Shown: positions 8,185 through 28,989 of the stretch, one piece after another | Layout: every line of letters starts with the position of its first letter | How positions within the stretch are numbered: the first letter of the stretch is position 1 | NCBI RefSeq assembly: GCF_030813365.1 | Contig: NZ_JAUSUC010000012.1 | Span: 1 to 32,000 of the forward strand | DNA from: Oikeobacillus pervagus | Lineage (GTDB): Bacteria > Bacillota > Bacilli > Bacillales > DSM-23947 | Length of the DNA stretch: 32,000 bases | Direction of reading: 5' to 3' | Notes under the pieces: model-generated | What the model was told of the DNA's origin: nothing | The model's database searches: none | Seen by the model: only the letters and a program-made list of their open reading frames with translations | Program-made: the position numbers and the translations under genes

Positions 8185-9283
8185 TTAGATACGAGAGCGT
8201 AAGTAAGCATTAATAAATTGGTCAATTTCACCATCTGTTACTGCATGGACGTTCCCAGATTCTGTGTTTGTACGATGGTCTTTTACCATGGAATACGGAT
8301 GGAAAACGTAGGAACGAATTTGACTGCCCCAGCCAATTTCTTTTTGTTCCCCACGAATTTCAGCTAACTCTTGCTCTTGTTCTTCAATTCTCTTCTGATA
8401 AAGTTTTGCTTTTAACATACTCATTGCCTGTTCCCGGTTTTTAATCTGAGAACGTTCTGACTGGCATGTCACAACGATATTGGTAGGTAAATGAGTAATA
8501 CGTACAGCAGAGTCAGTTGTATTAACATGCTGCCCACCGGCCCCACTGGAACGGTATGTGTCGATTTTTAAATCTTCTGAGCGAATGTCAATATCAATTT
8601 CGTCATTAAATTCCGGCATCACTTCACAAGAAACGAAAGAGGTATGACGGCGACCTGAAGAATCAAAAGGTGAAATCCTAACAAGACGATGGACCCCTTT
8701 TTCCGCTTTTAAATATCCATAAGCATTATGCCCTTTAATTAGTAGGGTCACACTTTTAATCCCCGCTTCATCTCCTGGTAAATAATCCAATGTTTCAACT
8801 TTAAACCCTTTTTTCTCCGCCCAACGAGTATACATTCGAAGTAAAATAGAGCCCCAGTCTTGCGATTCAGTCCCACCAGCACCAGGATGTAGCTCTAATA
8901 TTGCATTGTTTTTGTCATATGGTTCACTTAAAAGAAGCTGTAATTCATAATCATTCAAACGCTTCATTAATTCTTGTAGTTCTGCATCCAATTCGGCATG
9001 TAGATCTGCATCATCTTCTTCTTTCACTAATTCATGAGTTAATTCAAGATTTTCCTGTGTTTCAAGTAAATCCTTATATTCATTTACAAGATCTTTTAAA
9101 CCATTGGCTTCATTAATGACGGTTTGTGCCGCTTGTTGATCATCCCAAAAACCTGGTTGCAACATCACTTCATCTAATTCAGCAATTCGTGCCTCTTTAT
9201 TCTCTAAGTCAAAGAGACCCCCTAAAGTCCGCTAATTTCTTAGCCGTTTTATCTAGTTCATTTCTAATCTCAAATAATTCCAT
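8185..9283 (-). CDS. prfB: Peptide chain release factor 2, expressed through a programmed +1 ribosomal frameshift
   Basis: Frame 0 runs ATG 9283 [24 protein letters not shown] then TGA (9209-9211). The +1 frame continues [24 protein letters not shown]... into the 327-aa ORF, which carries SPF and GGQ ([12 protein letters not shown]) motifs. AGGAG SD before 9283. Confidence 0.95.
9208..9223 (-). promoter_or_regulatory. RF2 autoregulatory +1 frameshift site
   Basis: Minus strand reads AGG GGG TCT CTT TGA C. This is an internal SD-like AGGGGG three nt upstream of the slippery CUU-UGA-C, the same arrangement as in E. coli and B. subtilis prfB. Confidence 0.93.
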
Positions 9284-14996: not shown

Positions 14997-16610
14997 TTAC
15001 CAAGCGGCAATCGATCCATCTGTTCTCGATTCTGTTCCGCCAAAGAGTACACCTGTTTTAGTGTCTCTCCATATGATTTGCCCTCTACCAAATTTGGCGT
15101 TATCAACATTTATTTGTATATCATGCCCTTTTCTAACTAAAGCTTCCGCAATATGTTTCGGAAAATTCATTTCTACCATAATCTTTTTTCCTTCAATCCA
15201 TTGCCAACGCGGGGCATCAAGAGCTGCTTGGGGATTTAAGTGGAAGTCAATCATATTTGTTATCACTTGGAATTGGCCCTGTGGTTGCATATATTCTCCC
15301 ATAACTCCAAAAGGACCGATTGCTTCACCATTTTTTGTGATGAACCCTGGAATAATGGTGTGATACGTCTTTTTATGTGGAGCTAGGCAATTCGGATGAG
15401 TTGGTTCTAGTGAAAAATCGTATCCACGGTTTTGCAAGGCAATTCCCGTTCCCGGTATGACAATCCCTGATCCAAATCCTTTGTAATTACTTTGAATGAA
15501 AGAGACCATATTTCCCTCATGATCAGCAGTCGCTATATAGACTGTTCCGCCTTTTGGTGGACAATAAGGTTCAGGCATGATAGCAACTTGATTGATTTTT
15601 TTCCGTCGTGTACTTGCAAACTCTTCAGAAAGCAATGTTTCAACTGTAAGTGGCATACAGTTTTCCTCCGCAATAAATGCTTTGCCATCCGTGAAAGCAA
15701 GTTTCATCGATTCAATATGTTTATGATATGTATCCACTGATTCCTTTTCATAAAAATCGAAACCTTTCGCGATATTTAATGCCATTAGAGCAACAAGCCC
15801 TTGTCCATTCGGAGGAATCTCCCATACATCATATCCCCGGTAATGAACCGAGATAGGCTTTACCCATTGGGGATGATAGATGGCTAAATCTTCCTTTGTA
15901 AGGAAACCACCGTATTGCTCTATATATTTACTCATTTTCTCAGCTATTTCCCCACGGTAAAAGCTTTCACCATTCGTCTTTGCAATCGACTGTAGAGTGC
16001 TTGCATGGCATGGGGAACTCCACATTTCACCGATTTCCGGAGCACGACCGTTCGGAGCAAATATATCAAACCATGGCTTGAACTCTTCCGAAATCAAACA
16101 TTCCTTATAACTTACAAATGCTTCATGCCAATTCTTCCCTAATACAGGTGTAATTGGATACCCCTCTTTAGCGTAACGAATGGCTGGCTCCAGTACTTCG
16201 GAAAATGGCAATTTCCCAAATTTCCTCGATAGCTCTGCCCAAGCAGATGGGGCACCTGGAACCGTAATCGGAACCATTCCATGCATCGGCATTTGTTCAT
16301 ATCCCTTTTCCTTCACTGCTTCAACTGAAATGGATGATGGAGACGGTCCACTAGCATTTAACCCGAATAATTCCCCCTTCACCCATACAAGCGCAAAAGC
16401 ATCTCCCCCGATCCCGTTCGATGTGGGTTCAACGACGGTCAATGCTGCGGCAGTTGCAACGGCGGCATCAATTGCATTCCCACCCTTTTTTAACATATCT
16501 AACCCCGCCTGTGCCGCCAAAGGTTGTGAAGTAGCCACCATTCCATTGCGAGCAATCACTGTCTGCCTTTGCGAAGGATAAGGCTGATATAAATAATCAA
16601 AGTTTTTCAT
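14997..16610 (-). CDS. Gamma-glutamyltransferase family protein without a signal peptide (YwrD-like)
   Basis: GGT-family motifs GGNAIDAAVA, GIGGDAFA and a KGGTVYIATAD autoprocessing-Thr region. ATG 16610 (MKNFDYLYQPYPSQ) has a GGGGGAG SD and is preferred over ATG 16640. Confidence 0.88.
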   Translation of the reverse strand: MKNFDYLYQPYPSQRQTVIARNGMVATSQPLAAQAGLDMLKKGGNAIDAAVATAAALTVVEPTSNGIGGDAFALVWVKGELFGLNASGPSPSSISVEAVKEKGYEQMPMHGMVPITVPGAPSAWAELSRKFGKLPFSEVLEPAIRYAKEGYPITPVLGKNWHEAFVSYKECLISEEFKPWFDIFAPNGRAPEIGEMWSSPCHASTLQSIAKTNGESFYRGEIAEKMSKYIEQYGGFLTKEDLAIYHPQWVKPISVHYRGYDVWEIPPNGQGLVALMALNIAKGFDFYEKESVDTYHKHIESMKLAFTDGKAFIAEENCMPLTVETLLSEEFASTRRKKINQVAIMPEPYCPPKGGTVYIATADHEGNMVSFIQSNYKGFGSGIVIPGTGIALQNRGYDFSLEPTHPNCLAPHKKTYHTIIPGFITKNGEAIGPFGVMGEYMQPQGQFQVITNMIDFHLNPQAALDAPRWQWIEGKKIMVEMNFPKHIAEALVRKGHDIQINVDNAKFGRGQIIWRDTKTGVLFGGTESRTDGSIAAW

Positions 16611-16706
16611 CGTTATCTCCCCCTTGTACAAGACATTCATCCCCCGATATTAGCCTTATTATATCGATTATTCCCCCTAGTTAGAAGAGAAAACTGAATA
16701 TTCCCT

Positions 16707-16992
16707 CAAAAGCGGAAGCGCCTTGCACATCGGCGTACGGATTTCGTAGTTTCCGACTGAGATAAAGGAAACACAGCGAGTCGGTTTTCCGAGCTGATGT
16801 TGACTTATCGGAGGGAGAAAACGGAGAAATACGCTAGACGATAGGCGCTGAAGCTGGATGAACAAAAGCGGAAGCGCCTTGTCCATCGGCGTACGGATTT
16901 CGCAGGTTTCGACTGAGATAAAGGAAACACAGCGAGACGGTTTTCCGAGCTGATGTTGACTTATCGGAGGGAGAAAACGGAGAAATACGCTA
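16707..16992. repeat. Two tandem type-A structured repeats (A2 16707-16862, A3 16863-16992; period 156 nt)
   Basis: The two units are about 95% identical over about 130 nt (CAAAAGCGGAAGCGCCTTG..CATCGGCGTACGGATTTCG...GACTGAGATAAAGGAAACACAGCGAG..GGTTTTCCGAGCTGATGTTGACTTATCGGAGGGAGAAAACGGAGAAATACGCTA). A2 additionally carries a 3' tail GGCGCTGAAGCTGGATG that is inverted-complementary to the AAGCGGAAGCGCC head. Confidence 0.9.
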
Positions 16993-16999
16993 TAGATGT

Positions 17000-17032
17000 A
17001 AAAAAAAGCAAACCTTATCCTCTAAGGCTCGC
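17000..17032 (-). terminator. Terminator of the HesB-like gene
   Basis: Minus strand reads GCGAGCCTTA-GAGGA-TAAGGTTTGC followed by T8. Confidence 0.75.
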
Positions 17033-17044
17033 CCTATGTTGTTC

Positions 17045-17335
17045 TTAACAATTTGATCTTGGTCCATTTCGGAGAACAAGTTGTTTGAAACCAAGAAATT
17101 TAAATAAACCTACAACATATTTCTCAGATACCGTCTTTAAGCGCGGGTCAATGACCGTTTGGATCCCATCAATTTCTTCAATCCTATCATTTGAACGTGG
17201 TTCATCCAGAACCACGGAAATCATTGGCCCTCCTCAACCAACACCTGAAACAGCTACACGCAACACTATTTCCCGTTTGCTTTTTTGGATTTTTTCACGA
17301 ATATATTTCTGAGCATCTTCTGTTATGATCATCAT
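17045..17335 (-). CDS. HesB/IscA-like small protein with an in-frame TGA at codon 34 (candidate selenocysteine; otherwise a pseudogene or split gene)
   Basis: Hand translation gives MMIITEDAQKYIREKIQKSKREIVLRVAVSGVG-[TGA 17234-17236]-GGPMISVVLDEPRSNDRIEEIDGIQTVIDPRLKTVSEKYVVGLFKFLGFKQLVLRNGPRSNC*. A GAGGTGA SD, its own promoter and its own terminator are present. The TGA aligns with the conserved Cys of the GGGCSG HesB motif. Absent from the ORF track. Confidence 0.6.
17189..17221 (-). promoter_or_regulatory. SECIS-like hairpin 12 nt downstream of the in-frame UGA
   Basis: Minus strand reads AUUU-C-CGUGGUUC-[UGGAU]-GAACCACG-UUC-AAAU. It has an 8-bp perfect upper stem and a G-containing apical loop starting 26 nt from the UGA. 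Confidence 0.45.
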
Positions 17336-17357
17336 GAATCACCTCGCATTCTTAACA

Positions 17358-17401
17358 TATACCTATATAGGTATAATACAAAAGAATGATGCTTTTCTCA
17401 A
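17358..17401 (-). promoter_or_regulatory. Sigma-A-type promoter of the HesB-like gene overlapped by an 18-bp perfect palindrome
   Basis: On the minus strand: -35 TTGAGA (17396-17401), 17-nt spacer, -10 TATTAT (17373-17378). The palindrome TATACCTAT|ATAGGTATA lies at 17358-17375 and overlaps the -10/+1 region. Confidence 0.5.
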
Positions 17402-17440
17402 CTTAAAAGACGAAATCATTTTCCTTTAGTTTACTCCGCT

Positions 17441-17476
17441 AAAAAAGAAAAACCCTGCAAGCATCTAATTGCAGAG
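17441..17476 (-). terminator. Terminator of hpf
   Basis: Minus strand reads CTCTGCAA-TTAGATGC-TTGCAGGG followed by TTTTTCTTTTTT. Confidence 0.75.
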
Positions 17477-17517
17477 ATTTCCAAACATTCAATCGGCCTT
17501 TATTTTTTTAAAATCAC

Positions 17518-28199: not shown

Positions 28200-28306
28200 T
28201 CATCCAATATAACTGTAGATAAAGGCAAACTATTCGAAAGGATAGGACGCAAAGCCTAGGGTCTAAGGTTTAAAACTATGATCGCCTGGCTACCAACATT
28301 GATGGT
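28200..28306 (+). promoter_or_regulatory. c-di-GMP-I (GEMM) riboswitch aptamer
   Basis: AAAGGCAAAC-UAUUC-GAAA-GGAUAG-GACGCAAAGCC-UAGGGUCUAAGG...GAUCGCCUGGCUACCAA matches the GEMM-I core: GGCAAAC, a GAAA-capped helix, GACGCAAAGCC, and the AGCCUAGG/CCUGGCU helix ending in CUACC. The closing P1 is AUC(C)AAU / AUUGAU. Confidence 0.85.
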
Positions 28307-28416: not shown

Positions 28417-28989
28417 TTGAGCAAACAATGGAATCTCGATGAAATCGAATATTTGGAAGAGAATATCGGTTTTTATAAAGTTTCAACCATCGCTGAAAAA
28501 ATGGGACGTACATATGAATCCGTAAGAATTAAGATGAACCGTTTAGGAATTGCTAACACGAAACAACAAACAGGACTTGTCACCATCGGAGAGCTTGCAA
28601 ATATTTTAAAAGTTGAACGAAATACAGTGAAATGGTGGACACAAAAACACGGATTACCTTATCGAAAGAAAATCACAAAGAAATCGAAAATCTTTTATTT
28701 TATTGACCCTACTAAATTTTGGACATGGGCTGAGAAAAATAAATCAAAAATACAGTTTTTAAATATAGAGCCTCAATCCTTACCTCCAGAACCAGATTGG
28801 GTTGCTGAAGAAAGGAGAAATGAGAGAGAAAAGAAAGTGAGAAAAAAAAGAGTATATCAACAATGGACAACGAAAGAAGATCAAACCCTTTTGGAATTAA
28901 GAAATGAAGGTCTTACTTATGCAGAAATCGGTGAAATAATGGATCGTAGCGTAAACAGTATTGTTCGCCGATATAAACGAATTATCTAG
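28417..28989 (+). CDS. DNA-binding protein with two Myb/SANT-like repeats flanking an excisionase/MerR-type HTH
   Basis: 190 aa. The N-terminal repeat is WNLDEIEYLEENIGFYKVSTIAEKMGRTYESVRIKMNRLGI. The central HTH is VTIGELANILKVERNTVKWWTQKHGLPY. The C-terminal repeat is WTTKEDQTLLELRNEGLTYAEIGEIMDRSVNSIVRRYKRI. TTG start lies 11 nt after AAAGGAGG. Confidence 0.75.
   Translation: MSKQWNLDEIEYLEENIGFYKVSTIAEKMGRTYESVRIKMNRLGIANTKQQTGLVTIGELANILKVERNTVKWWTQKHGLPYRKKITKKSKIFYFIDPTKFWTWAEKNKSKIQFLNIEPQSLPPEPDWVAEERRNEREKKVRKKRVYQQWTTKEDQTLLELRNEGLTYAEIGEIMDRSVNSIVRRYKRII

Follow-up and report, generated by a model that had tools for sequence, protein, structure and literature searches.

Gene locus and annotation

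The window, i.e. the whole stretch of 32,000 nucleotides analysed, harbours on its minus strand a 96-codon frame (17335-17045) located between hpf on one side and a gamma-glutamyltranspeptidase gene on the other. Its translation reads MMIITEDAQKYIREKIQKSKREIVLRVAVSGVG, an internal stop, GGPMISVVLDEPRSNDRIEEIDGIQTVIDPRLKTVSEKYVVGLFKFLGFKQLVLRNGPRSNC and the terminal stop. The sole internal stop is TGA 17236-17234 at codon 34, which is preceded by VAVSGVG and followed by GGPMISVVLDEP, with SNC directly before the terminal stop. The translation agrees with an earlier note on this DNA, made from the sequence alone, in which the frame was described as broken only by this TGA. The following features were assigned to the locus, listed in the direction of transcription.

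17476-17453, minus strand: terminator of hpf, just upstream of the promoter-like site (terminator scan)
17373-17401, minus strand: promoter-like TTGAGA-17 nt-TATTAT (consensus scan, 10 of 12 positions match)
17339-17345, minus strand: Shine-Dalgarno sequence GAGGTGA, 5 nt upstream of the ATG (direct sequence reading)
17335, minus strand: ATG start codon of the HesB-like frame (sequence reading)
17237-17335, minus strand: N-terminal coding part, codons 1-33, MMIITEDAQKYIREKIQKSKREIVLRVAVSGVG (translation, ORF list)
17234-17236, minus strand: in-frame UGA, proposed Sec34, motif G-V-G-U-G-G-P (conserved column in relatives)
17189-17221, minus strand: whole SECIS-like element with possible lower stem AUUU/AAAU (sequence reading)
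17196-17216, minus strand: SECIS-like upper stem and apical loop, CGUGGUUC-UGGAU-GAACCACG (minimum free energy, MFE, structure)
17048-17233, minus strand: C-terminal coding part, codons 35-96, last residue Cys96 (translation, ORF list)
17047-17045, minus strand: TAA stop of the HesB-like frame (translation)
17005-17035, minus strand: intrinsic terminator-like hairpin, then T8 run (terminator scan)

The Shine-Dalgarno sequence and the T8 terminator named in the earlier note were both found. The promoter proposed alongside them stands as a consensus match only, which on its own is not significant (one match in the region versus 2.1 expected from shuffles). Judged from its own promoter-like site, its own terminator and the hpf terminator upstream, the HesB-like unit looks monocistronic.

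The mechanical ORF list splits the locus into a 33-aa and a 59-aa ORF and additionally contains an antisense ORF of 75 aa. The antisense ORF had previously been taken for the only one listed here; it is indeed present, together with the two halves. As anticipated, annotation pipelines mis-call the gene: the protein called in the database is the 59-aa half alone (P0001), and an exact look-up of P0001 gave no match. The same gene including the TGA occurs in an independent Logan assembly (L001, SRR30801594), where a single base differs, located in the upstream spacer; a sequencing error is therefore unlikely. The window was also screened for other UGA-interrupted ORFs, which gave no credible candidate.

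Genetic code and selenocysteine machinery

Of the 31 ORFs in the window, 6 end with TGA, Pfam-supported genes among them, and prfB possesses the canonical +1 frameshift site AGGGGGTCTCTTTGAC at 9223-9208 (minus). UGA is thus an ordinary stop codon in this genome, which uses the standard code. The prfB gene itself comprises 8185-9168 and an upstream part from ~9282 (minus); because of the programmed +1 frameshift, the ORF list shows its downstream part of 327 aa only.

Within the 32-kb window, neither sel genes nor a gene for tRNA-Sec were detected, and the window contains no tRNA gene at all. We infer that selA, selB, selC and selD are present in the source genome. An earlier survey reported three selenoproteins in Bacillales (PMC1794560), and the HesB-like selenoprotein was subsequently recorded in 86 bacteria (PMC5029168) and appears among the 'experimentally verified' entries in Table 1 of PMC9312934. 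According to the supplement of PMC5029168, many Bacillus-type species, e.g. B. azotoformans, B. bataviensis and B. oceanisediminis, possess SelA, SelB and SelD together with 2-8 selenoproteins. The view that the HesB-like family occurs 'mostly outside Bacilli' hence overstates its rarity there. The Sec trait is already documented in Bacillaceae, and the decoding biology is known; the locus adds a new divergent member to the family.

Family assignment of the product

For family searches of the product, U was read as C. The top NCBIfam match was TIGR01911 (HesB_rel_seleno; 2e-12, 47.6 bits), i.e. the HesB-like selenoprotein family named in the earlier note, followed by NF038090 (IscA_HesB_Se; 3.9e-12, 46.4 bits), with both scores below the respective cutoffs of 66.35 and 85. 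The match to PF01521 was likewise sub-threshold (20.9 versus a Pfam gathering score of 26.3), and a weak PF01521 match was also obtained with the N-terminal part alone. Searched singly, the N-terminal and C-terminal halves reached ~15 bits each, so that the family signal needs both halves. The close homologues P0002 and P0003 score 48-50 bits and are also under the family cutoffs, while some UGA-containing metagenome members pass them (NF038090, 111.8 bits; TIGR01911, 74.4 bits).

A likeness to the CC/Se motif family (NF041239 Moor_selen_rel, PF28096 CC_Se_fam) consists in a weak, essentially full-length NF041239 match of the product (26.1 bits versus a cutoff of 40, 6.9e-6, residues 4-87 of 96) and in a precomputed PF28096 match of P0003. 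The NF041239 match is below cutoff and weaker than those obtained with the two HesB-like models; its probable source is kinship between branches of one superfamily.

With the HesB-like selenoproteins (TIGR01911/NF038090), the product shares the fold, the G-V-G-U-G-G-P motif, in which UGA occupies the first-Cys column, a downstream hairpin at the same position over the L-D-E codons, and a C-terminal Cys. In contrast to them, it scores below both curated cutoffs and belongs to a small divergent clade, recognisable by V/A-I-D-P and by S-N/S-C at the C-terminus, which was met only in uncultured Bacillaceae-type sequences. Furthermore, the product has one terminal Cys, whereas many family members carry Cys-rich tails, and its apparently monocistronic gene adjoins hpf.

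The UGA column and the IscA-type fold

A profile search retrieved 20 proteins with the motif AGVG[W/C]GGP. Six of these relatives (P0010, P0012, P0017-P0020) have Cys in the UGA column, consistent with the equivalence of UGA and Cys that the earlier note had proposed to confirm by alignment with Cys-containing homologues. Among relatives, the column alternates between UGA and Cys only, the W of database entries representing TGA translated under code 4. At the DNA level, the metagenome pattern GxG-TGA-GGP-x5-LD was found at no fewer than 120 loci. Among the matches listed, ~115 of 120 are HesB-like ORFs with GVG-UGA-GGP, which have a conserved N-terminal part and Cys-rich C-termini.

When compared with the PDB, the family profile matched the IscA-type entries 1nwb (3.4e-16), 2apn, 1s98, 1x0g and 2d2a. 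In this profile search, the U column aligns with the first conserved Cys of IscA in the GGCSG motif (1nwb, 2apn), which is the invariant-Cys position to which the UGA had previously been assigned, and the terminal Cys aligns with the CGC motif of IscA-type proteins. The AF2 (AlphaFold) model of homologue P0003 (pLDDT 88) has IscA entries as its best structural matches, with TM values of 0.62-0.69, of which 0.69 is that to 1x0g. As predicted by this model, the IscA fold spans both halves of the protein; profile and model thus both bear out the proposed resemblance of the two halves to a single HesB/IscA fold.

The A-type Fe-S carriers IscA, SufA and ErpA (PF01521; 1s98, 1x0g, 2d2a, 1nwb, 2apn) share this fold with the product, its Sec column corresponding to Cys35 of GGCSG and its last residue to the CGC motif position. 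The three-Cys pattern of these carriers (C...CGC) is not found in the product, which differs by a predicted Sec in place of the first Cys and by having one of the two C-terminal Cys. Moreover, it falls short of the Pfam gathering score, and the gene is located outside an isc/suf operon.

The genomic neighbourhoods of family members are mostly lineage-specific. Recurring neighbours among the matches listed are an ArsR-type regulator upstream (at least 13 loci) and a thioredoxin downstream (at least 8 loci), neither of which is present in the window. By analogy, these neighbours provide hints of a redox role of the family.

Close homologues and selection

In a word-indexed protein search, the U-to-C product retrieved its own 59-aa fragment only, likely because Sec-containing relatives are uncalled or called with W. 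An exhaustive HMMER scan, for which the 62 residues after the UGA served as query, revealed only two close homologues, P0002 (53% identical) and P0003 (45%). The protein entries of both print W in the UGA column, where their DNA has TGA; this W is an artefact of code-4 gene calling on short contigs. On the P0002 contigs, the end of hpf is located directly upstream, as in the window. A scan of 185,579 species genomes with the subfamily-motif pattern, in which any TGN codon was allowed, matched one genome, the MAG 'uncultured Bacillaceae bacterium MFD08669.bin.3.115' (CAVVKR01) from which P0002 originates and in which the gene order is hpf, HesB-like gene, secA, prfB. The same pattern gave no match in JGI metagenomes, and across both collections the narrow Bacillaceae subfamily yielded no member with Cys at the UGA position.

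The TGA is kept in the same alignment column in L002-L007. Rather than showing varied disruptions at this locus, the three aligned lineages (45-53% identical) retain the TGA in place, conserve both of its flanks and have no other stop or frameshift. All three end in Cys, the terminal Cys being invariant in the subfamily. The N-terminal part shares 47-52% identity with the L002/L006 homologues (pN 0.32-0.34, pS at least 0.72) and the C-terminal part 45-53% with P0002/P0003 (pN 0.31-0.38, pS saturated). Over both halves, pN amounts to 0.28-0.45 versus a pS of 0.59-1.1, with synonymous sites saturated, and judged from these substitution rates both halves are under purifying selection. In a substitution-only simulation at 40% divergence, the TGA was kept without any new stop in 0.6% of trials. 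The conserved TGA column, the conservation on both of its sides, pN far below pS and the simulation together argue strongly against a gene in decay or one recently struck by a nonsense mutation.

Several observations concern the homologues themselves. In the MAG contig L007 (CAVVKR010000006.1, 2497-7655), hpf, secA and prfB are split into several ORFs by apparent frameshifts, a pattern typical of long reads assembled without correction. The small selenoprotein gene remains whole on this contig, and four further assemblies contain it in identical form. The MAG homologue (L002 348-365 / L007 3265-3282) has no in-frame ATG, GTG or TTG between an upstream TGA and the conserved N-terminus. A well-placed Shine-Dalgarno sequence, AGGGAGGGA, is followed by ATT, which suggests the use of a non-canonical ATT start. 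The P0002 entry carries a spurious N-terminal extension of 22 residues that reads through the upstream TGA. Many database proteins of the family (P0002-P0016; loci L002-L006) carry W at the Sec position because short contigs were gene-called under a code with TGA as Trp, and the same artefact probably affects selenoproteins generally in large metagenomic protein sets.

Hairpin downstream of the UGA codon

The 51 nt that follow the UGA have the hairpin CGUGGUUC-UGGAU-GAACCACG as their MFE structure, and the apical loop of this hairpin starts 26 nt after the codon. Position and G-containing loop agree with the SECIS-like hairpin described in the earlier note. Of the 'stable upper stem' also claimed, the stem itself is part of the MFE structure, but its folding energy is within chance (z = -1.6 to -2.1 versus shuffles). 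Since the energy is not significant, the evidence for the hairpin is the comparison with relatives. The lower stem AUUU/AAAU is not conserved in the family, and its being part of the element is uncertain. The UGGAU loop also occurs in L002 (GUAGCCC/GGGUUGC stem) and in L006 (GGCUC/GAGCC stem), for the latter of which MFE favours a different fold.

Family-wide conservation was assessed from a gap-free alignment of 96 distinct sequences from the UGA onward. Between columns 22-28 and 34-40, 79% of the cells are paired, with the caveat that columns 28-33 are fixed by the search pattern and that the conserved L-D-E codons force part of the stem. The covariation score is 0.338 versus 0.162 in shuffles; 0.338 was reached by none of 500 shuffles, and slid controls attained at most 0.167. 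Pair 25-37 is G-C in 42, A-U in 23, U-A in 17 and G-U in 11 sequences. At pair 26-36 (C-G 69, U-A 7), a base at a second codon position changes in concert with the synonymous third position of the Glu codon. Column 27 falls on the third position of its codon where this encodes Ala, Thr or Val, and has U in ~79% of the sequences. According to this alignment, the hairpin is positionally conserved and covarying across the family, synonymous sites included.

Consensus features of bacterial SECIS elements in bSECISearch-type searches are an apical loop 16-37 nt from the UGA, an upper stem of at least 4 bp, and a loop of 3-14 nt with a G in the first two positions. By reading, the hairpin in the window falls within these limits, with a 25 nt spacer, an 8-bp stem and the loop UGGAU. 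Rfam covariance models run on 16600-17500 with E up to 10, i.e. the Infernal-type check suggested in the earlier note, returned noise only and no SECIS family. Like the E. coli fdhF SECIS, the hairpin is located directly downstream of the UGA and inside the coding sequence. Set against fdhF and the bacterial consensus, it has a stem of 7-8 bp and a 5-nt loop with G at positions 2-3. It differs from fdhF in that the loop is UGGAU instead of the GGUC type and that no bulged U is obvious.

At the protein level, the residue preceding Leu-Asp varies in step with the one following Glu (Ala/Pro, Thr/Ser, Val/Gln) in alignment A4 (columns 25-27 and 34-39; L008-L127, among the matches listed). This amino acid covariation arises because the RNA stem forces it, and a protein-only analysis could misread it as a structural contact.

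Interpretation of the locus

The locus is very probably a genuine, mis-annotated HesB/IscA-like selenoprotein gene, a divergent Bacillaceae member of a known family. We are confident, if short of certain, that 17335-17045 (minus) constitutes one monocistronic gene for a 96-residue selenoprotein of the HesB/IscA fold, the UGA at codon 34 of which is decoded as Sec. Arguments for this reading are the integrity of the gene, the conservation of the UGA, the Sec/Cys column, the fold, and the conservation and covariation of the hairpin; Sec insertion at codon 34 is what we infer from them. The mechanism would be the standard one that depends on SelB and a SECIS. In the role of the bacterial SECIS, the hairpin formed by the codons of the conserved V-L-D-E-P stretch would bring SelB-GTP-Sec-tRNA(Sec) to a ribosome pausing at the UGA, where it would compete with RF2.

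If a TGG or TGY codon had mutated to TGA, the locus would represent a pseudogene or split gene, i.e. the remains of a gene in decay or two small ORFs that have nothing to do with each other. Such an origin could account for the splitting by gene callers, for the 59-aa half as the only database entry and for scores under all curated family cutoffs. It is nevertheless very unlikely, given a TGA in the same column of three lineages that are 45-53% identical and have no other stop or frameshift, purifying selection on both halves, the identical TGA in independent assemblies, a UGA common to ~115 family members among the matches listed, and an intact promoter-like site, Shine-Dalgarno sequence and terminator. 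Still less probability attaches to termination and reinitiation, by which a 33-aa peptide would end at the UGA and a 59-aa protein would start at ATG 17224-17222. The earlier note had raised this possibility in view of the sequence GGAGGG, which lies 5 nt upstream of this in-frame ATG and could serve as its Shine-Dalgarno sequence. However, the ATG is not conserved (GUU in L002, CAA in L006, variable across the family), and the Gly-Gly codons vary as well (GGC GGC, GGU GGG and others), so that there is no conserved Shine-Dalgarno sequence. Moreover, neither half alone makes the IscA fold, in which the N-terminal helix, a strand and the Sec loop belong to one domain.

Read-through of UGA by near-cognate tRNA-Trp has been described for Bacillus subtilis. 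A conserved UGA could accordingly be read through here by near-cognate tRNA-Trp or by Cys insertion, with no Sec machinery involved, to yield a product with Trp or Cys at position 34 or only a low, regulated level of product. The great rarity of the subfamily, the pattern of which matched 1 of 185,579 species genomes, would fit such a mechanism. We regard it as improbable, because the column is that of the ligand Cys of the fold and only UGA and Cys alternate there, because a family-wide covarying hairpin is what SelB-dependent decoding needs but has no role in simple read-through, and because many Bacillaceae have the Sec trait (PMC5029168 supplement). A rare Bacillaceae clade might also keep UGA and hairpin without selA, selB and selC and recode the codon differently, e.g. 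by Trp or Cys read-through that the hairpin stimulates and that serves as a regulatory device beside hpf. This we consider highly improbable; with Sec machinery absent, it is the only reading that would make the locus remarkable.

Under Sec decoding of UGA34, Sec34 in the G-V-G-U-G-G-P loop would stand where A-type Fe-S carriers have their first cluster-ligating Cys, and Cys96, as the single conserved last residue, where they have the C-terminal CGC motif, so that both would occupy ligand positions of these carriers. We take the product to be most likely a dimeric protein that employs a Sec/Cys pair in redox chemistry or in the handling of metal/Fe-S (or selenium).

Implications for annotation

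The result corrects an annotation: where a 96-residue selenoprotein is very probably encoded, present entries show a 59-aa fragment or none at all. As the divergent Bacillaceae clade lies below the NCBIfam cutoffs, pipelines that rely on cutoffs likely miss it, and in large protein collections the code-4 calling of short contigs turns many Sec codons into Trp. The understanding of selenocysteine decoding is unchanged by the locus. A small, apparently monocistronic copy in a Bacillus-type organism could serve as a model for the role of the family.

Other elements in the window

The region between the terminator of the selenoprotein gene and the gamma-glutamyltranspeptidase gene contains two copies of a 130-nt intergenic repeat (16707-16836 and 16863-16992), which are tandem-spaced, 95% identical and 156 nt apart. 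A third copy (1671-1772), 81% identical, is located 15 kb off. The repeat matched no Rfam family at the gathering threshold and appears to be a dispersed element specific to this genome. On the plus strand, a c-di-GMP-I riboswitch (RF01051, 83 bits) was detected at 28214-28297, ~120 nt upstream of ORF 28417-28989, the product of which has matches to HTH and sigma-70 region 4.
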